From: Eledone cirrhosa
Taxonomy: Eukaryota
Length of the DNA: 64,000 bases
NCBI GenBank assembly: GCA_964016885.1
Contig: OZ024742.1
Coordinates: forward strand, 68,324,001 to 68,388,000
Reading direction: 5' to 3'
Shown: piece after piece, positions 7,809-64,000 of the stretch
How positions within the stretch are numbered: position 1 is the first letter of the stretch
How the letters are laid out: the number at the start of each line of letters is the position of its first letter
Made by a program: the position numbers and the translations under genes
Notes under the pieces: model-generated
Seen by the model: the letters and a program-made list of their open reading frames with translations, nothing else
The model's database searches: none
What the model was told of the DNA's origin: nothing

Positions 7809-8054
7809 GATAGATAGATAGATAGATAGATAGATAAGTTTCTATTTATTTGCCACAAGGGCACAAAAGAAAGGGACAAATACAAGGGGGTGGGGGAGTT
7901 TACATACAATAAAACGAGTACAAAAATATAACAAATAAAATGAAACAATCGAAGTCCTCAATGGGGAGGGGGCGTTTTGGGGTCGCACACACCCCCGAAA
8001 AAATGTGCAACCCTCCTCCTCGGGAGCACAAAAAGAGGGCGCTCCCTTCTTCCT

Positions 8055-11000
8055 CTACCTTTTTCGCCTACAGCCTGATATAGAGAGAAGCCCATTCACA
8101 CGGGCCATTCTCGCTACTTTCACCCACCTTTCATAAAACTGGCTGGGGTGGAGCACCTCTCTCTCCATCTTGATCCTTCTTCCGAAATGGTATCGGAAGA
8201 AGAGGACCAGTTGTTGGCCGGAGAGAAAGGTGTCCGACCTCAGCCCTTTCAATCGTGTCCACCATATAACCTCTTTCACGATGGCTATTACGCACAGAAA
8301 CACCACCTCTCCTTCATTTTTGAAGGAGGAGGCGGCTTGATCGTTACAATAGACTCGGTGGTCAACCGGATTGGTCCCACCCGTGACAGCATCGTTCGAC
8401 ATAGCCCCGCAGATTGGCGAAGCCCGGGCATTGTACCAATGCGTGCGCAACGGTTTCCTCGTCGCGCACGCATCTGGGACAGATCTTTTTCGAGAAGTCC
8501 CTACCCGGGCGCCCGTGTCTGTAGAGCTTTTCACGAACGGGCAGAGCCCCTCGGTGGCACTGCCAGGCCATGGACCTCTGGAAGTTGTCCAAAGATCCCG
8601 GCCGAAATGTCCTACTGAGCAGGCTCGCCAGTTCGTCTTCCTCCATGACTAGGGCTTCTCCAAGGGCGTCGTCGCACCTGCTGCGCACCAGCCTTCTATA
8701 GAATGTCGAGGTGGAGTCTCCACTGATAGCCAGGTCCGCCCGCCAGAGAGCCGTGAGCGCTTGGGCACACTCAGTGTGCCAGGTGCCCAGTTTTCTCGGT
8801 CTTTACTTGACCCAGGATTGCAGCTCGGTGAGTGAGACGAGTCTCGGAAAGGTTCGTCTGACAAACGGAGCCCACACCGGTTGACCGGTGAGGAATGCCT
8901 GGAGGTACCGTAGCCTTAATGCGTGTTTACGCATCAGCATCCACGGTATCCTCAGCCCTCCTTTCGAAGGGTGTTGACAGCAGATGGATCTCCTCACCAA
9001 AGGTGCCAGCTTCTTCCAAAGGAATTGGAAGAGTGCGCGCTCCAATTTGGTGAGCGTTTCCCTTTGTCAGGCAGTAGTAGATGACGGACGCTATATAAGT
9101 GTTCTCCACCTCCACCCGACCTTTCATGGGTAGTTTGCACTCGGCCCATTTCTGGGTCAGTGCAAACACCATGTTCGATAAATCACCCCAGTTCTTCTCC
9201 ACCTGGAGGTCTGGTCCAAACCAGACCCCGAGCAACTTCACCGGGCCCTCCGTCCAGCGTCTGACGACGCCATCGGAGGGCATCGGTTTGCCCCTCCACG
9301 TGCCGAGTTGCAAACCGATCGACTTGTCCCGGTTCAGCCTAGCCCCTGTAAACCTCCCATACTCCTCCAGTAAGGTGCCGATCTCCCCGATTTCCGAGGT
9401 GGTCGACACCATTACTATTACGTCATAGGCGTAGGCCGACACCGCTTTCCGCAATCCCGGTTCCAAAGGGATGCCCTGCAACAACTCCAACTTCCGCAGC
9501 AGTGGCTCGAGGGCCTATACATACAGAAGAGAGGAGAGAGGGCACCCCTGTCGGATGGACCGCGTGATTTCGAACGACTCCGAGAGGTAGCTGTTCACCT
9601 TGACTCTAGAGCAGATGCGGCTGCTGTGCATGGCAGTGATCCAGCCCCTGAAAACGGGTCCGAAACCTGCCGCCGCTAGCACCGCAACCAGGTAACAATG
9701 GTCGACCCTATCAAACGGCTTAGATTGATCCAAGATGATCAGTGCCCCACCAAAGCCAGATTCATTCCCTACCCTCTCTATGATGTATTGCATGAGGTGG
9801 AGGTTGTCGTGAATGGACCTGGACGGGACAGCGCATTTCTGCGCATCTTCCACCAGGTTGCCCACGCAAGCGCCAACCGCTTTGCTAACACCTTGGCCAA
9901 AATCTTTAACTCCGCATTTAGCAGAGTTATGGGCCTAAAATTGCTAATCTCATCCCCCGTCTCATTCTCCCGTTCTGTTGCCAGTTGCAGTAGACCGCCT
10001 CGAGGAGATCGGAGAACAAGTCCGGCATAGCTAAATAAAGTTCGTATGGAAGACCATCGAGGCCCGGGGATTTGTGTTTGCCGCATTGGCTCAGCACGTC
10101 CCCTATTTCAGCAGCTGAGATCGGCCTCTCGCAGGACTTCGCCTCCTCGTCCGAAAGACACGGCAGGCGGTCGAGGAATGGACCGACGTCCACATCCCCA
10201 TCCGGCCCCCCGTCCCTCCCGAACAATCGGGCAAAGTGCCTTTGAAAGGTCTCACACATCTGCTTAGGTTCAAGGATCACCCGTCCATCCTGGTCTCGCA
10301 AAGACCGGATAGTGGATCTAATCCCTCTTTTGGCTTCTGTCACGTGGGCCCAGCTAACAGCTTTGGTCTCCTCGTTTCCTAGAGCACGTATTTTGCTTCG
10401 GACAACGTAGCCTTCGGGCTTCGCGTAAAAGAACTGGCCCAATGTCGTTCTCGACGCTAGCGCACTAGCCACGTCGCCGCTTCTAATTGCCTCTTCTACA
10501 TTATCTACCAACTCCCTTTTCTTCCTATTTCTATCTGAGGCTAACTCCTTACTAAATCCTATTGAAACTACTCTAATCTTTTTTTTTTAGAGATCCCCAC
10601 CATCTGCTGTTGACGATCGCTCCCGTCAACCGCTCCTTAACTAAAGTACTAATCCGGTCCCTGTACACTTTACTTGCCGATAAGGACAAGTTCAGTTTCC
10701 AGTAACTGGGTCCCTGTCTCTGGGTTCTATCAATGTTAAGTATGCAGGTCACTAATTTGTGATCCGAATAGACAACCATGAGCATCTCTGGACAGCTTAA
10801 AAGGTCCCTATCCTTATTTCTAACTAGGACCCTATCTAGGTACGACCTAGATGATCCGCTGCGGTTCGCCCAAGTCCAAGTTGGCGCAGTCGGAAAATCT
10901 AGTCTATATCTATCGGCCAGGTCAAATCGGACGATTAACCCCTTGAGGCTGTTTCACCCCCCCCCCCCCCCCCCAGCAGAACGACAACCCCTCCCCCACT

Positions 11001-11196
11001 TCCGGGCTGACTGAGAAATGCGTGCATCTCAAAGTCGTCAAAGGTGGGGGGCTAGCTGGCGCACGCTGCTGATCCGGGCCTCGCAAATGACCATCACATT
11101 TATACAGCGTGACCTGGGGTCATTTAGAAGTTTTGCCTGCTTCCAATATGAGCCCAGGCCAGACACATTTAGACAAGCCACTGTCAATACAGCCAT
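8055..11196 (-). pseudogene. Tx1 ORF2 (APE endonuclease, RT, C-terminal zinc finger), frameshifted
   Basis: MAVLTVACLNVSGLG (APE start), YSDHKLV, YWKLN, KSPGLDGLPYELY, NFRPITLLNAELKILAK, LDQSKPFDRVDH, SIRQGCPLSSLLY, SAYAYDV (YADD mutated), CPRC..DEETVAHALVQC. Confidence 0.92.
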
Positions 11197-11892
11197 GTTG
11201 GTGGTAAAGAGAAAAAGGAGGCACCTACCTCTCTGCGTCCTGAGGACCAGGCCGCACAATTTACATGGGAGTGGGGGAGGGGTTGAATGGTGGGGTGGAG
11301 GTTTGTGGTAGTGTGGGGGCATCAGTGTGTGGTGGGGTTGGGGTGTTTGGAGTTGTGTGGGTGTTTGGGGAGGGGGTGGGGAATTTTTTTAGGAGGACGC
11401 GCTTAATGGGTCCAACGCAGGGGGGGGGACGTCCTCTTTAAAATTGTCCCTTAAAATGTTGTATATGTCCTTGGGACTTTTATCATTTTGAGGTGGGAAA
11501 AATCCCCTGCCTGGGTGAAGTAAGGCCCTTCGGTATTTACCAAATTGTTATTATAAATAATGTTCAACAGTTTTTTGTTTCTTGTGTTTATGTATGTGTA
11601 TGCATATTTTTGTTTTTGTGTGGTGTTTTTTGTTTGCTGTTGTTGTGTGTTCTTTTGTGTTGATGTCTGTGTTATGTTTTGGGGTGGGGTTGTTTTTATT
11701 TGTGTGCCTGAGGTGTGTTTTCTTTTTTTTCTTTTAACTTTTTGGAAATGCTCCCCCTCGTCTGACGACGAACGGGGGTCGTCTTCCGTGTTGGAGGGGA
11801 GGGGTAAATTTTCGGGTAGTGTTTGCGGTGTGGGTGCTTTGGAAATTGTTTTTTGAGCGGGGGGGATGGGTTGGACAGTGTTTTGTTTTGTG

Positions 11893-12901
11893 TTAACTTG
11901 TGGTTGTTGTTTTTTGTAGTGGTGGTGGTGGTGATTGTGTTGGTTGTGTAGTTGTTGGTGGTGTGGGCAGAATTGGAGTTTTCTTTTTAAGTTGAGGACA
12001 AACAGCCCTCAGGTAACTTCTGGTTGAACAGAGGTAACACGAGGGCCGCCTACCTTCAACGGTAATGTTTATAAAAGTTTGGTCATCAAGTATGACGTGT
12101 TCAGGGATCTGGGCGATCCTTTCGGGCCTCATTTGAACTAAACGTTCGAGGCCCGTTCCACTGAACGCGTCACCTGATGCCTTTCCCATGGATATCAATA
12201 TGTCATCGTTCAGGTCAAGAAAACCTGTTAACACCCACCATATGTCCATAATTGGAAGAATGGTGTGTATTTTTATTTTCTGTGTCCTTCTACCCATGTA
12301 CGTAGGGTAGAAGGTGTATGCGGTGGATGTAATAGGTTTTACCGAAAGTTTTTTTGCCGTGTCCTGGTCCTTCATGAGAATGGATAGACTCCCATAGAGT
12401 CTATCCTTTTGTATGAACAGAATGTCTTTCATTACATCTTTTAAAACCAGCTCTATGTCACTCTGTGATGGTTGAGCTGGTCCTTTCGTTTTATTTAACA
12501 GTGTCCTAAACATCACTGTGTTTAGGACTCTCTGACCTTTTAGTTCCGGGGGGGAGTGGATCGAAAATGATCCATTTTCCCCGTATACTATGTATTTTTT
12601 GGCTTCTGCCAGTAGCTCCTTAGCGTTGCTTATGTCTACTGGCAGGTATTCAAAGTTGTTGTTTTTTTTTTGTAGTTTGGACAAAGGAAACCTTTCCATT
12701 ATCCTTGTACCCGTTGTTTTCTTTTTCGTTGCTTTTTTCTATTTTTTCTGTGTTTTCTTTGTCCATGTTGATGTTGTTTTGCAGTTTCTGTGTGTTTGTG
12801 TTTTTGGTGTTTGTGTCATTTGTATTTTCATACAATTTCATGTTAACATTTTGGGGGTTTTTACCCACATTTTCACAATTTACAGTAGAAACATTGTGCA
12901 T
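11893..12901 (-). pseudogene. Tx1 ORF1 (gag-like nucleic-acid-binding protein), frameshifted near the poly-T at about 12660
   Basis: Upstream of ORF2 on the same strand; ITVEGRRPSCYLCSTRSYLRAVCP is a degenerate CCHC knuckle; P/T-rich tail. Confidence 0.8.
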
Positions 12902-13960: not shown

Positions 13961-14231
13961 ATATTTTTTACCAAAGACGATTTAGCCTGATAGTGGGATT
14001 TAGAACCCTTTAAGAAATGGAAAAAGATGAGTATTGACGTACATGGGAATCGAACCCACATCTTTGGTTATCCAGACCACCACGGGTGATATGGTGGTGT
14101 AAAGGTAGCACAATGGTCTAGATAACCAAAGATGTGGATTCGACTTCCCTGTACGTCAATACTCATCTTTTTCCAATTGTTAGAGGGTTTAGAACCCCAT
14201 TATCAGGCTAAAATTTCTTTAGTCAAAATAT
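13961..14231. repeat. Imperfect inverted repeat (about 118-bp arms) containing a tRNA-like cloverleaf
   Basis: 13961-14079 is the reverse complement of 14114-14231; 14087-14158 has an A-box-like tggtgtaaagg, an anticodon arm tggt-ctagata-acca and a T-arm (gtgggttcgattcccat in the left-arm copy). Confidence 0.8.
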
Positions 14232-17568: not shown

Positions 17569-18655
17569 CTATCCATTAGGGTATAACGTGGGGCTGTAAT
17601 ACAGGAAAGTTTTGTGCAATTTATGTTTACAAGCCGAAATTGCCTCAGATTTTTTGTTTAAGATGTGGTCTGTGGCGTAGAGTATTTCCAGGGCCTCAGC
17701 GGCGCAGAGGCCACAAGGTCTTTTATTTCCGTTATACGATCTAGCCCTAGCTAGGATCTCCCAGTGTAACTTATATTGGGTGTGGTTGTCTTTTAGACTC
17801 CAGATATAAGCTGAAAGTGACGTCATATTCCTTCTTAGAGGGTAACGAAAAGAATGGGTATGCGTGTAAAGACGCTGCTTGAATCTATTGGCGGTTAACC
17901 CTACTGGACGTGGGTGTTACAAACTTACATTTGTAGACAATGTTACTAGAGAGGCATTTCCCGGATAGGGGGCAATCAACCCGATTCCTACAATTACAGT
18001 TAGTACTAACTACAGGGTTGCACGTGTTCCTACGGCTAGGTAGTTTAGCTAAATTTGAAGCTGTGATGTTATGTGCAAGGTTAGGAGTCGTAGAGTAAGA
18101 AATTTTAATTGTATTTCTATTAAAAATTTTACTATATTTATGTGTAGGGGGAAAATGCTTCGTAAAAAGGGAAAGAAAGATCTTAGCTAATGGTGTGGCC
18201 ATCTGCATATTATATGGTGGGTTATACCAACAAATGCGACGGGATCTATTTCTTCTAGGTCTATTTTCGTACTCTGTATATGCTACCTTATCGACAAATC
18301 CACTTTGAGCAAGGGCTTCATTGTAATACATGGATTGGTTGTTGAAAATACGCTCGTTGGTGGAAAGACGGGAAAGCCTCAACGAAACGTTTCTTACCAG
18401 GTTCTTGGTTATGCTGGCAGGATGGTTGGAATGCTTACTTATGTAATTAAGCGTATCATTCGGCTTTCTATACGGGTAATACAACCCATTCAATAAATTG
18501 AGAGTAATGTCAAGGTAATTAACGACCGAGAGATTGGCCTCAACCTGTATAGAGAAGTTGAAGCCTTTAAAGAAGGGTGTGAGTTCTTTTCTGAACCTGT
18601 CGCAAGCACGAGGTCCGCACTTAGTCATGGTCAAAAGACCATCGTCACGACGGTT
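17569..18655 (-). mobile_element. Penelope-like element fragment: RT C-terminal half + GIY-YIG endonuclease
   Basis: RDDGL, VNYLDITLNL, YPYRKPND, WYNPPYN, CNCRNRVDCPL, SSNIVYKC, FKQRLYTHTHSFR, CGLCAAE, LNKKSEAISACKH; 5'-truncated near a (TA)n array. Confidence 0.92.
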
Positions 18656-18717
18656 CTTATATATTTGATATATATTTATCCTTATCGAGCCCTCTTTAGT
18701 CTTGAAATTTATTATTA

Positions 18718-18797
<80 letters not shown>

Positions 18798-19080
18798 TAT
18801 AAATATATATAAATATATAAATATGTATATATATATATATAGTTAAAAGAATAGAGGTGTAACACACAAGTTATTATATATTGGTAAACGGAATAGAAAA
18901 TGCTGACAAATTGTTCACAGTTGAAAAATGGTTTAATTAGGAATAAAAGAGTATTAGTGATTGTATGGGTTAGTATTCAGTTGTGGTTTTAAGTTTTTAA
19001 GTTTTTACCGGTTGCGCATTTCTAAATGGTTTTCAAAAATAATTTTGAGATAGAGTGTCCGTGCTGTTTGCTATATATAT

Positions 19081-21040: not shown

Positions 21041-21121
21041 AGGTACCCACTCTACTACCCTAAGTATTGAGTACTTTGGTGCGTTATGGTCCATCTGGTT
21101 CCTTACCACATTTCCTTCGTT
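21041..21121 (+). mobile_element. Family A tail-only copy ending in (TA)n
   Basis: tacccactctactaccctaagtattgagtactttggtgcgttatggtccatctggttccttaccacatttccttcgt matches 23995-24071. Confidence 0.85.
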
Positions 21122-23583: not shown

Positions 23584-23617
<34 letters not shown>

Positions 23618-23639
23618 GTATATATATATACGTATATAT

Positions 23640-23816
<177 letters not shown>

Positions 23817-23832
23817 TAGATATAGATATATA

Positions 23833-23880
<48 letters not shown>

Positions 23881-23882
<2 letters not shown>

Positions 23883-24070
23883 AACGAGTAGGACCCCGAC
23901 GGCTGAGCTCAAGCCGTTTCGACGGCTAATTCTGGACCAGAATTAGCCGTCGAAACGGCTTGAGCTCAGCCGTCGGGGTCCTACTCGTTCATATTACCCA
24001 CTCTACTACCCTAAGTATTGAGTACCTTGGTGCGTTATGGTCCACCTGGTTCCTTACCACATTTCCTCCG

Positions 24071-24071
<1 letters not shown>
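23881..24071 (+). mobile_element. Family A mini-PLE: perfect 54-bp hairpin + about 80-nt tail, in (TA)n
   Basis: 23882-23935 is the exact reverse complement of 23937-23990; contains the HHR 3' half gaaa-cggc-ttgagctca-gccg-tc-ggggtc. Confidence 0.85.
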
Positions 24072-24113
<42 letters not shown>

Positions 24114-24193: not shown

Positions 24194-24260
24194 GAGATTC
24201 AGGGCCCGACGGCTGAGCTCTTGCCGTTTCGATATCTATTCCAGACGGGATAAAACTAAC
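24190..24260 (-). mobile_element. Family A-related variant (HHR 3' half) at a (TA)n edge
   Basis: Minus: gtctggaatagatatc-gaaa-cggc-aagagctca-gccg-tc-gggccc; diverged copy at 60980-61063 (+). Confidence 0.65.
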
Positions 24261-25779: not shown

Positions 25780-26063
25780 ACGTGTGGGCAAATTGAAAAA
25801 AGCTCATTTCTCGAACTTAGGCAATCGTTAATGCGTTAACTCATCAGGATATCGATCCTTTCTTCAATGCACAGTCCACAAGACGGATTATCCCTTGCGT
25901 ATGGCTTGGACCTAGCGTTAGCTTTCCACTGGATGGAGTAGTCTACGTCTGTGTCTTTGAGAGACCATACGTGGCTCGCGAGTTTCGTGGACGATCGTTG
26001 GTCCGGGTATCTAAAGGTCGACTGATGGTTCAGGAAGCGTTCCTTATACCGGCCCTCCACCAT
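25780..26063 (-). mobile_element. PLE 3' fragment (GIY-YIG C-terminal part)
   Basis: [44 protein letters not shown]; truncated at (TA)n. Confidence 0.88.
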
Positions 26064-29810: not shown

Positions 29811-30206
<396 letters not shown>

Positions 30207-31225: not shown

Positions 31226-32190
31226 ATTTTCTTTTTATTTGCCACCAGGGCATAAAAAAAAGTACAATGGGGGGAGTTTACATAAAAAGGCGTCCTCAAT
31301 AAGGAGGAGGCAATAACAAAATATAAAAATAAAATAAAATATAACAAAGTAAAATTTATAACAAAATCCTCAATAGGTAGGAGGCGCATTGGGGGGTCGC
31401 ACACACCCCCGAAAAAAAGTGTGCAACCCTTCTCCTCAGGAGCACAGAGAGGGGGTGCTCCCTTGGTCTTTCATCTTCCTCACCTATAGTCTGGTGTAGA
31501 GTGAAGGCCCATTCACACGGGCCATTCTCGCCACTTTCACCCATCTTTCATAAAAACGGCTGGGGTGCAGCACCTCTCTCTCCATCCTGATCCTTCTTCC
31601 GAAATGATATCGGAAGAAACGGACCAGTTGTTGGCCAGAGAGAAAGGTGTCTGACCTCAGTCCTTTCAGACGCGTCCACCATACAACCTCTTTCGCCATG
31701 GCTATTACGCACAGAAACACCGCCTCTCCTTCGTTTTTGAAGAGGGGGGGGGGCTTGATCGTTACAATAGACTCGGTGGTCAACCGGATCGGTCCCACCC
31801 TTGACAGCAGTTGTTCGACATAGCCCCACAGATCGGCAATGCCCGAGCAGTGTACCAATGCGTGTGCAACGGTTTCCTCGTCGCACACGCATCTGGGACA
31901 GATCTTTTTCGAGAGGTCCCTACCCGGGCGCCCGTGTCTGTAGAGCCTTTCTCGAACGGGTAGAGCCCTTCTGTAGCACTGCCAGGCCAGGGACCTCTGG
32001 AAGTTATCCATGGGTCCCAGGCTGAATGTCCTACCGAACAGGTTGGCCAGTTCATCTTCCTACATGCCTAGGGCTTCTCCTAGGGTGTCGTCGCACCTGC
32101 TAACCACCAGCCCTCTATAGAATGACGAGGTGGATTCTCCACTGACAGCCGGGTCCGCCTGCCAGAGAGCCGTGAGCTCCTGGGCACACT
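31226..32190 (-). mobile_element. 5'-truncated Tx1 copy in (GATA)n
   Basis: DNFQRSLAWQCYRRALPVRERLY..CPRC..HALVHC and a 3'UTR like 7837-8050; GATA repeats on both sides. Confidence 0.93.
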
Positions 32191-32217
32191 AGTTAGATAG
32201 ATAGATAGATAGATAGT

Positions 32218-32283
<66 letters not shown>

Positions 32284-32291
32284 GGTAGATA

Positions 32292-34286
32292 TGTTTCTTT
32301 ATTAGCCAAGGGGCACAAAAGAAGGGGACAAATACAAAGGGGGAAGTTTACATACAATAAAAACGTGTAAAATGCTATCACAAATGTAATTTAAAAATTA
32401 ATCGATTTTCCCGAATAGGGGGAGACATTTCATATGGGTAACACATACCCCCGAAAAAATGTGCAACCCTCATCTCCAGGAGTACGGAGTGTTTGTACCC
32501 CTTTCCTCTCTTCCTTTTTTCCTCAACCTACAGGCTGATATAGAGAGAAGGCCCATTGACTCGGGCCATTCTCGCCACATCACCCACCTTTCATAAAACT
32601 TGCTGGGGTACAGCACCTCTCTCTCCATCCTGATTCTTCTTCCAAAGTGGTATTTGAAAAAAAGAATCAGTTGATGGCCGGAGTGAAAGGTGTCTGACAT
32701 CAACCCTTTTAACCTCGTCCACCATACAACCTCTTTCGCCATAGCTATCACAAAAAGGAAAACCGCCTCTCCTTCGTTTTTGAAGGGTGGTGGCGGTTTG
32801 ATCATGACAATAGACTCGGTGGTCAACCGGATTACTCCCACCCACGACAATAGTCGTTCTACATAGCCCCACAGGTCGGTAACGCCCGGGCAGTGTATGA
32901 ATGCGTGCGCGACGGTTTCTTCGTCTCGCACGCATCTCGGACAGATCTTTATCGAAGGGTCCCTGCCCGGGCGCCCATGTCTGTAGAGCTTGTCTCGAAC
33001 TGGTAGAGCTCCTCGGTTGCACTGCCAGGCCAGGGACTTTTGGAAGTTGTCGATCGGTCCCGGGCGGAAGATCCTACCGAACAGACTGGCCAGTTCATCT
33101 TCATCTACGCCTAGAGTTTCTCCGAGCGCGTCGCCGCACTTGCTGCGGATCAGCCCTCTATACAATGACGAAATGGAGTCTCCACTGATCGCCGGGTCAG
33201 CCTGCCAGAGGGCTGTGAGCGCCTGAGCACATTCGATGTGCCAGTCGCCCATTTTCCTCGTTCTTTGCTTGACCCAGGACTGCAGATCGGTCAGCGAGAC
33301 AAGTCGTGGGAAGGCTCACCTCACGTACAGGGCCCACACCGGTTGTCCGGTGAGGAATACGTAGAGATGCCGCAGCCTGAGCGCGTGTTTGCGCATCGTC
33401 AGCCACGGCATCCCAAGCCCTCCGTTGGAAGGGTGTTGGCAGCAGATGGATCTTCTCACTAAAGGAACCCGCTTCTTCCAAAGGAATTGGAAGAGCGCCC
33501 GCTACATTTTGGTGAGCGTTTTGGCTGGACAAGGCACGACGGCCAAGCGGTAGTAGATGACGGACGCTATAAAAGTGTTCGCCACCTCCGCTCGACTTTT
33601 CAAGAATAGTTGGCACTCGGCCCACTTCTGAGTGACTGCAAACACCTTGGCGGTCACCTCGTTCCAGTTTTTCTCCACCTGGAAGTCCGGACCAAACCAG
33701 ACCACAAGCATCTTTACTGGTCCTTCCGTCCAGCGTCCGACGACGCCATCGGAAGGCATCGGTTTGCCTCTTCACGTTCCAAGTTGCAAACCGACGGACT
33801 TGTCCCGGTTCAGCTTCGCTCCAGTGAACCTTTCGTATTCCTTCAGTAAGGTGCCGACCTCCTCGGTTTGGGAGGTGCTCGACACCACTACTGTCACGTC
33901 GTCGGCGTAGGCCGACGCCGCTTCTGGAGTCCCTGTTCTAGAGGGATGCCCTGCAATAGCTCCAACTTCGGCAGTAGTGGCTCGAGAGACAGTACGTACA
34001 GAAGGGAGGAGAGAGGGCATCCCTGTCGGATGGATCGCGTGATATGGAATGGGTCCGAGAGGTAGCCGTTCACCTTGACGCTTGAGCAGATATTGCTGTT
34101 GTGCATTGCAGCAATCCAGCCCCTGAACACGGGTCCGCAGCCTGCCGCCTCAAGCACCGCATCCAAGTAACGATGGTCAACCCTATCGAAACCCTTAGAC
34201 TGATCTAAGTTTATCAGGGCTCCACCGAAGCCGGGTTTACACCCTACCCTCTATATGATGTATCGCATGAGGTGGAGGTTGTCGTG
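32292..34286 (-). mobile_element. 5'-truncated Tx1 copy in (GATA)n
   Basis: SIRQGCPLSSLLY, SAYADDV and zinc finger; GATA arrays at 32195-32291 and 34291-34402. Confidence 0.93.
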
Positions 34287-34477: not shown

Positions 34478-34947
<470 letters not shown>

Positions 34948-35473: not shown

Positions 35474-35530
<57 letters not shown>

Positions 35531-35576
35531 CAAAAAATTAAATACTTCTACTTATATATATATATATATATATATA

Positions 35577-35779
35577 GGAACAAGTATGACCCCGACGGCA
35601 GAGCTCAAGCCGTTTCGACGGCTAATTCTGGACTCAGAATTCTGGACTCGCGTCCAGAAATAACCGTCGAAACGGCTTGAGCTCTGCCGTCGGGGTCATA
35701 CTTGTTCCTATTACCGACTAAGTATTGAGTACTTTGGTGCGTTATGGTCCATCAGGTTCCTTACCACATTTCCTTAGTT
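35577..35779 (+). mobile_element. Family A copy (hairpin + tail) in (TA)n
   Basis: Both arms share the variants agtatgac and gcagagc; tail as in 23991-24071. Confidence 0.87.
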
Positions 35780-35799
35780 ATATATATATATATATAACG

Positions 35800-35855
<56 letters not shown>

Positions 35856-36017
35856 CAACAAATTAAATACTTCTACTTACATATATATATATAATGCGAG
35901 ACAAATCACATACCCTCCATCTCAATCTCAATTTTACTTTTGAAAATCATAAGAACTGTGAAACCGGTAAACGAAATAAATAAATATTCTGAAAAAGTCT
36001 CCACTTGCATTTTCGAT

Positions 36018-38373: not shown

Positions 38374-38376
<3 letters not shown>

Positions 38377-38432
38377 AAAAAGTATGACCCCGACGGCAGA
38401 GCTCAACCCGTTTCGACGGCTATTTCTGGACT
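38374..38432 (-). mobile_element. Family A single-arm copy in (TA)n
   Basis: ggaaaaagtatgaccccgacggcagagctcaacccgtttcgacggctatttctggac. Confidence 0.85.
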
Positions 38433-38706
38433 CATATATATATATATACATATATAAATGCATGTATAGTATATTTTGGCAATATACCGTATGTTTAATT
38501 AAAAACATTTAGAAGGCCATACGCTATCAGTTTTAAAGTAGTGACTATGTCACCTGCTTCTTTTCGGTGAAAGAAGGGAGAGTAGCTGACAGTCTGTATA
38601 AATGGGAGAAGCAAGCAGTCGCCAAGTATGAAATAGATCCCCTTCCAGTCTAGATTTATTCGAAGTAAGAAGGTTTGGTGCTGCAGTCGGACTTTACCTA
38701 ACTATG

Positions 38707-38803: not shown

Positions 38804-39020
38804 TAACAAAGGAATTGTGGTAAGGAACCAGATGGACCATAACGCACCAGAGTACTCAATACTTAGGGTAGTACAGTGGGAAATAGGAAAAAGTATGACC
38901 CCGACGGCAGAGCTCAAGCCGTTTCGATGGCTATTTCTGGACTAAAATCTAAAATTGATTTTAGTCCAGAAATAGCCGTCGAAACGGCTTGAGCTCTGCC
39001 GTCGGGGTCATACTTCTTCC
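38804..39020 (-). mobile_element. Family A copy (hairpin + tail), minus orientation
   Basis: Reverse-complement tail at 38804-38884, then a hairpin at 38886-39020 with a longer apex. Confidence 0.87.
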
Positions 39021-40599: not shown

Positions 40600-41242
40600 T
40601 GAGTTAATATCTGTATACAACAACTACGCGATGGGACCCACCCACAGCCTCGGCAGACAGAATGGAGTAGGCGTTTCCCCGGACAACGGCAAGGGAGACG
40701 CGCTGGAAAAGCCACTCCAACTCGCGGGGCTCACTCCTGCGGCTGGACAGCTCAGCGCTTATGATGGTGAGTAAGGAGGTAGCCCTGGGGCCGAGGACAC
40801 CAGAAGTCTACACTGCCAGGGGTACGACCGCAAACCTGTCGGAGAGCGACCGGTATTTGAGGAGTTTGGTCCCCTCAGCCCGACGTGCAGCAGAACCTGG
40901 GTCAGTCGCAGACTGCACCAGGTTGCGGCTGCAGAAAGTGTCGGTGCAAGTGGCATCCCAGACGAGGGGTTTGCCACCGCGGAACGGGAAGATGGTCATG
41001 CCATCTGGCCTTTTGCCGTCCCCTCGATCCAGCCCCACCGGCTCGAGCTGGGAAGGGAAGCCTGCAGCGTCCAAGCCATGCTTAATGACCTCATTGAGGG
41101 CAGCATTGCGTAGAATGCGGCCGGCACTGTGGCGACAAGAAAGTGGGTGGAGGCCGAAAGAGTCCACGGTGGAACCGCAGCGACATTGGTGTGGCTGGCA
41201 GATCGAGAGGCCGAGCCTCAGGGAAACGCCGATTCGCAGGCT
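40600..41242 (-). mobile_element. 3' fragment of a REL-endonuclease non-LTR retrotransposon (CRE-like)
   Basis: HPLSC knuckle, RNAALNEVI, LEPVGLDRGDGKRPDGMTIFPF, LVWDATC, KLLKY, SLAVVRGNAYSIL. Confidence 0.85.
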
Positions 41243-41439
41243 ATGGTTTTTGTTATTTTTCTATTAAGATGACGAATGTTTGTACAGATATAGAAAAGCT
41301 ATTGTGAAAACCGATAGATATTTGTTATATTTACAATTTAGTTAGTTAGGAAAGGATAACGCCAAAGATATTTTACTTTTCTCGGATGATGGGGCTCTTT
41401 GGAGGAAGGACTGACATTATTCTTAATCTGGAGGCCTGT

Positions 41440-59751: not shown

Positions 59752-59753
<2 letters not shown>

Positions 59754-59880
59754 AACCAGTAAGACCCCGACGGCTGAGCTCAAGCCGTTTCGACGGCTAA
59801 TTCTGGACTAAATGAAAATTTATCCTGGTATTTAAATAGCCGATCTTCTCAAGGGGTAATTCCATATATGGTCAAAGTGA
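59752..59880 (-). mobile_element. Longest family A copy, containing the complete ribozyme
   Basis: Arm as in 23881 but continuing past the usual truncation point; upstream boundary uncertain. Confidence 0.8.
59764..59857 (-). ncRNA. Complete type I hammerhead with U3/A8 core (family A)
   Basis: Minus: acccc-TTGAGAA-ga(t)cggcta...tagccgtc-GAAA-cggc-ttgagctca-gccg-TC-ggggt. Confidence 0.8.
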
Positions 59881-60114
59881 TTGTCCTGTGATTGCAAATT
59901 AGTAGGGGAGATGGTGGCTAAACCTACCAGTAGGAGAAAGAGGGGAGGGGTGGAGTAGATTCAATCAAGCGTTGGTAGTGCCAGCTACAGCTGGGCATGA
60001 GGTCAAAGAAGATACTGGGGAGGGGGAGGGGGGAGTCGGAACGGTAGGTAGAACAATGGGGGGTAAAGATATATATGAAAGATTTAATGAGCTCAAGGAA
60101 TAGATTCCGGGCTC

Positions 60115-60928: not shown

Positions 60929-60981
<53 letters not shown>

Positions 60982-61158
60982 AATTAAACCAGTATTAAAC
61001 TAGTAGTCTGGAATAAGGTGTCGATATTGCAAAAGCTCTGCTGTCGGGCCCTGGCTCTTTCTAATATATATGTGTGTGTGTATGTATATATATACATATA
61101 TAAATATATGAACATTATATATATATATATATATATATATTTATACATATATATATAC

Positions 61159-63178: not shown

Positions 63179-64000
63179 TTGGGTTGGCAAGAAAGTAATT
63201 TCGTTTTTACGATTTTTTTAATTACTTTTGTCAATGTTATGATTTTTTTCCTTTTAACATTTGATAGCCGTTACTTTTAGCTAACTTTAGAAGCAAATTG
63301 TGCGTAATTTTGTTTGCAGCTGTTAGTCCAGTTTCAATTTTAACATGGAGTGCAAAAATAAACATTTTCGCTATATTTTGCTTTTTTATTTCCGTAAAGG
63401 CAAGAAAGCTGCTGAGGTTCACAAAGAGATATGTGAAGTTTATGGTGTTGGCTGCTTAACAGAACGCATTTGTCAGAAATGGTTTTTAAAATTCCGTTCT
63501 GCAGAGTTTTCACTCAAAGATGACCAACGCTCTGGTCGACCTTCTGAATTTGATGATGACAGAATCAAAACCATAATTGAATCTGATTGTCATATAAGTG
63601 TGCGAGAGATTGCAGAGGTTAAATGTATCATACGCAACAATTGAAAATCACTTAAAATGTCTCGGACTCGTTAAGAAGTTCGATATTTGTGTTCCACATA
63701 AATTGAAAGAGATTCACTTAACACAACGAATCAATATTTGCGATATGCATCTCAAACGAAATGAAATCGACCTTTTTTTAACGAATCATCACTGGTGATG
63801 AAAAAATGGATTGTCTACAATAAAATCAATCGAAAAGGTCATGGTCGAAGCGTAATGAACCAGCACAAACCACATGGAAAGCTGAATTGCATCAAAAACA
63901 GGCTATGCTGTCAATTTGATGGGATTACAAAGGTGTTGTGTATTTTGAGCTGCTTTCAAGGAACTAAATGATTAGTTCAGATGTTTACTGTCAACAATTA
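63179..64000 (+). mobile_element. Mariner transposon left end with disrupted transposase, runs off window
   Basis: TIR-like ttgggttggcaagaaagtaatttcg after TA; ORF from 63345 with HTH region (AHKEICEVYG-like, KWFLKFRS, RSGRP), CVPHKL, ITGDEKWIVY; frameshifts and stops. Confidence 0.93.

Follow-up and report, generated by a model that had tools for sequence, protein, structure and literature searches.

In the sections of the reports drawn on here, Penelope-like elements (PLEs) of the Hydra clade, including Hydra-1_Obim, are described as having a single ORF in which a reverse transcriptase (RT) is followed by a GIY-YIG endonuclease (EN), a hammerhead motif, insertion into (TA)n, and a length "generally" under ~3 kb (Craig et al. 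2021, PMC8557442). The layout of an inverted copy and a tail on one side, TA targeting, and the hammerheads of Hydra elements have already been published (PMC8557442), as have, for PLEs, head-to-head truncated copies and partial tandems (PMC8557442, PMC3846280); the origin of the inverted repeats and one-sided tails is named there as unresolved (PMC8557442). In the Anolis Poseidon element PAc, two internal RT start sites bound the tail in vitro, both target strands are nicked and extended, and insertion proceeds without a need for ribozyme cleavage (Frangieh et al. 2024, PMC11167929). In L1 twin priming, the second target strand primes internally on one RNA and thereby generates an inversion, and an additional G found at 5' junctions is accepted as marking a copied cap (PMC11702581). 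Finally, the non-LTR retrozymes are short, PLE-derived, and related to type I hammerheads (10.64898/2026.07.22.740005).

Against this background we analyzed a 64-kb stretch of the Eledone cirrhosa genome (the window, which denotes the whole stretch of DNA studied), in which a short hairpin-plus-tail repeat recurs within (TA)n. These stubs are almost certainly short head-to-head, 5'-truncated insertions of an autonomous Hydra-clade PLE. In the following feature list, d is the distance from the tail end, mapped on the natural full-length unit, and +1 is the A of AGTCC; site 1 and site 2 are the two outer ends discussed below.

21044..21120, plus strand: tail-only copy (d76-1), ending in (TA)n
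23602..23880: (TA)n array that includes a GA run, flanking the 23881 copy at site 2
23881..23937, minus strand: inverted arm of the 23881 copy (d80-136), running from site 2 (at d79-80) to +2 and abutting (TA)n
23937..23991, plus strand: direct arm of the 23881 copy, in which a type I hammerhead is represented by its 3' half (GAAA at 23952-23955, preceded by the 3' strand of stem II and followed by stem III, whose loop is GAGCTC, and the 3' strand of stem I)
after C 23974: predicted cleavage point of the 23881 copy
23992..24070, plus strand: 79-nt tail of the 23881 copy, its end being site 1
24071..24105: (TA)n array on the site-1 side of the 23881 copy
29887..30020, plus strand: asymmetric hairpin copy (inverted to d122, direct d97-1), the tail with a 7-nt deletion
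35577..35777, plus strand: hairpin copy, the inverted arm reaching +1 exactly
38375..38433, minus strand: solo inverted site-2 arm to d137, exactly +1, then a C absent from the parent (38433), with TA on both sides
38807..39020, minus strand: complete hairpin-plus-tail copy
59752..60071, minus strand: long site-2 arm to d420, with a complete hammerhead and part of the 3' UTR
about 59764-59857: hammerhead in the 59752 copy, U3-A8 core at 59852-59846

The original prediction had described seven copies, each with at least one end in (TA)n and, when complete, with an inverted arm, a direct arm, and a constant tail of about 80 nt; all seven were located, each bordered by (TA)n at one end or both, the tail measures 79 nt, and its motif has 26,858 genome-wide matches against 0 for a control. 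At the apex of the 23881 copy, a single C is common to the inverted and direct arms (direct from d134). In the 35577 copy, +1 is followed by a C absent from the parent (35635) and then by filler consisting of the arm end again and another C. The variants agtaggac/ctgagc and agtatgac/cagagc are mirrored within copies, as had been noticed earlier, yet the two arms of the 35577 copy differ at two sites. A 40-nt non-TA stretch flanks this copy on both sides (35528-35576 and 35854-35890), its two versions differing at one or two positions; it may be a long target duplication.

The link to a PLE, previously conjectured, was borne out by extending long copies to an ORF for RT and GIY-YIG. The parent unit is 3,531 nt and carries an RT plus C-terminal GIY-YIG ORF of 717-720 aa, with the hammerhead at the end of the 3' UTR. 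Walking outward from long copies, we reached a locus (L067) with the order (TA)n, a 1.3-kb inverted 3' part, a 720-aa ORF, a 1.2-kb 3' UTR, arm, tail, and (TA)n, and its inverted part opens with GGAAC, as in the short copies. In tandem copies, the tail runs on as TTAT into a 94-nt leader and the ATG of the ORF; hence, the tail belongs to the 5' UTR. Tandem arrays consist of 3,531-nt units with 0-1 differing sites, in agreement with the recent activity proposed at the outset, and in the C-terminal 247 aa all 150 scored matches are 98-100% identical and stop-free; such near-identical, intact-looking copies suggest that the family was recently active. One insertion (L201-L202, G000:C1:437196000-437215999) has more than four head-to-tail 3,531-nt units with 0-1 differences, the outcome expected of a rolling-circle template. 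Long copies of the 23881-type subfamily likewise adjoin the parent ORF, mostly at 86-97% aa identity; 22 of 30 such loci gave an ORF match, one of them only to a distant sister family.

Sequence searches with the encoded protein recovered 1,992 relatives at an E value of 1e-20 or better among 8,000 candidates, and YRDD is present in all 36 aligned relatives. The protein model (pLDDT 89) has telomerase RTs (TERTs) as its best structural matches, the top one being a telomerase RT with Z 17.7 and rmsd 4.2 over 291 aligned residues. At the C terminus, Atlas matches to GIY-YIG clusters (score 0.95-0.96; PF01541 on 34% of one cluster's members) and the motifs VIY..YIG, R, E, and N point to the endonuclease; this call is sequence based, the domain alone giving a single-sequence fold of pLDDT 36. 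Neither Pfam nor PDB sequence searches, run with the ORF and with its alignment, returned anything useful. As the RT is telomerase-like and both putative priming sites adjoin TAT/TTAT, the RT might conceivably also lengthen the flanking (TA)n.

By its motifs, the element is assigned to the known Hydra clade as a new, abundant, and recently active family. The protein has the clade-defining features, namely, a C-terminal EN, DKT, a CxCX5C linker, no CCHH, and CxxC and CxH flanking E and N; the element inserts into (TA)n, has a hammerhead motif, and shows the pLTR and the partial tandem and inverted insertions with a tail that characterize PLE insertion. Where the Hydra clade has RWK it has RWR, a difference found also among the 36 relatives (RWK in 27, RWR in 7). 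In comparison with the published account of the clade (PMC8557442), its hammerhead has a U3-A8 core and long stems II and III, its pLTR, inverted, and tandem copies are abundant, and its unit is 3.5 kb rather than <3 kb, which is due to the 1.2-kb 3' UTR. The start of Hydra-1_Obim in the supplement of that paper is plainly homologous to the element by eye; we considered the two being identical and rejected this, as five motifs of the element are absent from the partial sequence compared in the supplement (PMC8557442). With respect to the PLE architecture as published (PMC8557442, PMC3846280), the tail here is 79 nt rather than 30-40 nt, and the inner ends cluster at one base with a cap-like extra G.

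The arm is, as had been recognized from the start, the 3' half of a hammerhead. The complete type I motif (stem I of 5 bp, UUGAGAA, stem II, GAAA, stem III, GUC) is present in the 59752 copy and in long copies, with a predicted three-way junction fold, and the short copies have the 3' half only. The folding energy is no better than that of shuffled sequences (z 0.12), and no compensatory pairs were seen in four close hammerhead sequences. Rfam reported no hammerhead in the full motif, nor in the window among 150 of 184 rows, almost all of which were miRNA-family matches to microsatellites and hairpins. The U3-A8 core variant is known from Cercyon PLEs, according to the parts of the report consulted (PMC4209133). 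Position 7 varies (G, U, C, or A), and a mismatched core with C3 and A8 occurs in 24 of 134 long-copy contexts, nearly all of the 23881-type subfamily. Positions are given in standard hammerhead numbering. A C3-A8 core is predicted to cleave poorly; that the 23881-type subfamily (e.g., L251-L280) mostly has it and is yet widely amplified hints that cleavage is dispensable for insertion.

The genome (3.0 Gb, 1,796 contigs) is microsatellite rich, and the tail 20-mer has 26,858 exact matches in it, a lower bound on copy ends, with 0 for the reversed control. As an unselected sample we took 96 of the first 100 tail matches listed, all from contig C1, in which two double-tailed insertions are counted twice. 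The 12 nt 3' of the tail are TA-rich in 81 of 96 cases, and so is the outer side of 61 of the 70 inverted arms; the corresponding background is 5.2% for 12-mers of the window and 8.7% for those of the loci; the suggested TA preference is thus upheld. Median copy length in this sample is 187.5 nt, and about 80% of the copies are <215 nt. The apex length, described initially as variable, does vary, but it is strongly clustered, 57 of 96 direct ends and 55 of 70 inverted ends lying 120-145 nt from the tail end. The exact apex of the 23881 copy recurs at 559 loci genome-wide, about 2% of the tail matches, and is distributed over at least six arm variants among the 30 loci fetched; it therefore arises repeatedly. 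A sequencing run from a second organism (X5) also contains tail and arm, with a TA junction at site 1 as here.

We next consider how the two arms relate to each other. In 119 two-armed short copies from all loci analyzed, arm identity is 97.0% within copies versus 92.2% between copies, and none has two or more discordant diagnostic sites between its arms, versus 64% of random pairs. Variants are mirrored in both arms in 182 of 191 cases when common, in 7 of 33 at mid-frequency, and in 13 of 68 when rare (0.5 expected), two of these 13 being probably one locus counted twice. The absence of discordant arms and the spread of the 23881 apex over at least six arm variants agree with the earlier idea that the inverted arm is made afresh at each insertion. 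Arm lengths are linked as well: among 63 unselected two-armed copies, both arms are short in 58, both long in 4, and mixed in 1 (Fisher p 8e-6), and of 34 long insertions, hand-picked from 100 loci for having both outer ends visible, only 2 have a short partner. From the linked lengths and mirrored variants we infer that both arms come from one template; that each is a primary product is indicated by the differences in arm length and by the placing of the extra base, both given below.

An account in which the second arm is secondary, proposed for rotifer PLEs as self-priming on an antisense template (PMC3846280, in the sections consulted), would have the 3' end of the site-1 cDNA fold back and be copied as far as the first TAT, which is site 2, before joining the target, with asymmetric copies arising by later central deletion. 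It accounts for the mirrored variants, the near-symmetric apex, and the about 1:1 ratio of arm ends abutting TA at site 2 (27,686 genome-wide) to arms running into the tail (28,442), as well as for the position of site 2 as the first TAT met on copying back. Against it, the inverted arm exceeds the direct part by at least 20 nt in 12 of 63 copies, which thus contain sequence missing from the direct part, and the long insertions are divided between a longer site-1 arm (18/34) and a longer site-2 arm (16/34), so that a simple fold-back of the tail-bearing strand is insufficient without later deletion. Further, there are solo site-2 arms that terminate at +1 followed by a C (38375-38433), the extra base described below lies on the inverted arm at 8 of 13 loci, and a cap-like base argues for a sense template. 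We consider this account quite unlikely.

The outer ends are fixed. Sixty of 70 inverted arms start at one point, site 2, beside TAT and 79 nt inside the tail end, and 4 of 70 start at the tail end itself; long insertions obey the same two-end rule, with the tail on either arm. By analogy, these two ends fit the two internal start sites of the anole element, which bound its tail and from which both target strands were extended in vitro (PMC11167929). The systems differ in that the PAc sites lie in the ORF and start without target homology, whereas those here lie in the 5' UTR beside TAT/TTAT, where microhomology would be the basis of priming, a proposal against which the homology-free initiation in vitro counts; the inverted arm and run-off at a cap are not addressed in the parts of that report consulted (PMC11167929).

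The inner ends gather near +1 without a sharp edge. Of 110 arm ends, 9 are at +1, 59 at +2 to +8, 15 at -1 to -6, 16 further up, and 11 further down; in independent DNA sequencing runs, in which contig depth is not equal to copy number, depth rises about tenfold at +1 and falls sharply after site 1. The string GGACT-N-AGTCC, i.e., both arms at +1 with one base between them, occurs at 464 loci, and in the first 50 of these N is C or G 46 times, against 0 of 18 at a control point 9 nt further in (p 6e-13 versus +1). The base at -1 is T in 129 of 134 long-copy contexts (for the ATG-type subfamilies it was read in two long copies). T also stands at -1 in the long copies of the youngest subfamily, to which three of the oriented C/G loci are assigned. 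Orientation of 13 loci (15 fetched) gave an extra base C in 8, G in 4, and A in 1; the base belongs to the inverted arm at 8 loci and to the direct arm at 4, and at 1 it is templated. Two-base junctions (n=50) include 6 CG and 0 GC. At arm-to-TA junctions (n=84, hand count), the first base is A in 56, C in 15, G in 9, and T in 4, which speaks against a copied cap. So does a minority subfamily with C at -1 (5 of 134 contexts, about 12% of depth), which can give templated C/G and probably explains the 9 G-first junctions. RT can also add C at an uncapped end, which counts against reading the extra base as a cap.

A mechanism that we regard as fairly probable, judging from these junctions, is that a single capped RNA serves both nicked strands of a (TA)n target, each priming at one of two fixed internal sites close to the RNA 5' end, and that the resulting cDNAs run off the cap and are end-joined. 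The pLTR promoter would start the capped RNA at +1, the putative start being the A of AGTCC in the stem II loop. The protein would nick both strands of the (TA)n target, and each target 3' end would prime at one site via TAT/TTAT microhomology, site 2 at +58 and site 1 at +137. Both cDNAs would then run off the cap, with their ends trimmed by 0-7 nt and the extra G/C at the junction representing the copied cap, and would be joined by microhomology to give the variable apex (e.g., TGG or TG in L337 and L324). For long and tandem copies, the template would have to be an RNA that has no 5' end there, either a read-through multimer or a circle made by the ribozyme. A second template class of this kind, multimeric or circular, would be needed, which counts against the mechanism, because long copies mostly pass +1 in the second round: in a hand count of 24, 1 ends near +1, 2 fall short of it, and 21 go beyond it. 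Multimeric or circular templates have been proposed for PLE hammerheads (PMC4209133, in the parts consulted). An LTR-like strand transfer via the 41-nt overlap from +1 to the cleavage site was also considered, and nothing seen requires it.

As a weak indication of a promoter, TTAGTC/TCAGTC at +1 is initiator-like and TATTTAAA, ~29 nt upstream, fits the TATA consensus. However, TATTTAAA is not conserved across subfamilies, and no downstream promoter element was seen by eye. PLE promoters inside the pLTR are described (PMC2377424), but in the sections consulted the D. virilis PLE starts upstream of the ribozyme and not inside it (PMC4209133, PMC2377424), which counts against the mechanism proposed here, as does the lack of a sharp edge at +1. 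More tentatively, and short of calling it probable, we propose that the Hydra PLE promoter might fire inside its own hammerhead and so produce a capped mRNA with half a ribozyme and both priming sites in its first 137 nt; twin priming on this RNA would yield "strong-stop" hairpins, which are the large majority of copies, and productive full-length or tandem copies would be made only from RNA without that 5' end, e.g., ribozyme-made circles. Relative to L1, in which the second site is variable and the parts barely overlap, both sites here are fixed and the arms duplicate each other (PMC11702581, in the parts consulted).

Three other explanations bear on the same data. In one, the parent and the two priming sites are retained, and the RT, copying a longer RNA, stalls at a structure, the AU-rich stem II loop hairpin with its 3' base at AGTCC, and adds an untemplated C. 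The predicted inner hairpin does close at about +1 to +5, and the arm ends spread from -4 to +8, as a stall would allow; but stem III and stem II, both stronger, are traversed by the RT before it reaches this point, stalls occurring independently would leave the two arm lengths unlinked (58/1/0/4 observed), and the control truncation point has no extra C/G (0/18), so that we find it unlikely. The version offered in the original prediction, a tiny independent nonautonomous element transcribed and remobilized in trans as a hairpin-plus-tail unit, draws on the dominance of short copies (median 187.5 nt) and the 559 loci with the 23881 apex. That apex nevertheless makes up about 2% of the tail matches and is spread over at least six arm variants, the tested tail-bearing subfamilies have long ORF-linked copies with which the short copies share their variants, and the short copies have no sequence upstream of +1. 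This part of the prediction was not supported, and we rate it as very improbable. Instead, the short copies look like dead-end products of the autonomous element: their ribozyme has no 5' half, the putative upstream promoter is missing, and their apex is not fixed. For the same reasons, a half ribozyme and no fixed apex, they do not amount to a fixed short self-propagating unit with complete ribozymes, as in a retrozyme or nonautonomous PLE; moreover, retrozymes are head-to-tail tandems, whereas the stubs are head-to-head (10.64898/2026.07.22.740005, in the parts consulted). A MITE that a DNA transposase mobilizes, duplicating its TA target, would share the inverted arms and TA flanks, and it has next to no probability: the copies have a one-sided 79-nt tail, a variable apex, and continuity with the RT-EN ORF and hammerhead. 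It is refuted by the full-length RT-encoding parent and by one end being a tail in place of fixed terminal inverted repeats.

These findings have consequences for annotation and for PLE biology. Some 27,000 stubs or more, each about 190 nt long, are PLE debris that structure-based annotation could file as MITEs. They form a large natural data set, for which our preferred reading, twin priming on one capped RNA, makes three sharp, testable predictions, namely, a capped start at one base, two fixed priming sites each used once, and both cDNAs on the same RNA. If the promoter does lie inside the hammerhead, with productive copies made from other RNA, this would account in general terms for how the inverted repeat and tail of PLEs come about, and tens of thousands of natural junctions would record it. 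In the literature searched, mostly outside subscription journals, no paper turned up that reports run-off marked by a cap, or twin priming, in PLEs; earlier work on these elements may be relevant.

Several further features of the window lie beside the family. Fragments of sister Hydra-type ORFs occur at 17569-18976 and 25782-26048, both on the minus strand, with about 50% and 35% protein identity to the family, respectively; several Hydra families thus coexist in the genome. Related hammerhead-like arm pieces with other stems (GGGCCC end) stand beside (TA)n at 24200-24240 and 60978-61065 and are probably the ends of sister PLEs. Short near-perfect palindromes unrelated to the family are found at 34570-34675 and at 14040-14160, the latter with tRNA-like ends. 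Lastly, translations inspected by eye revealed degraded RT/endonuclease ORFs of LINE type, together with one RT-associated and one mariner-like fragment, in the regions 7900-12900, 31484-34250, 40808-41260, and 63327-63644.
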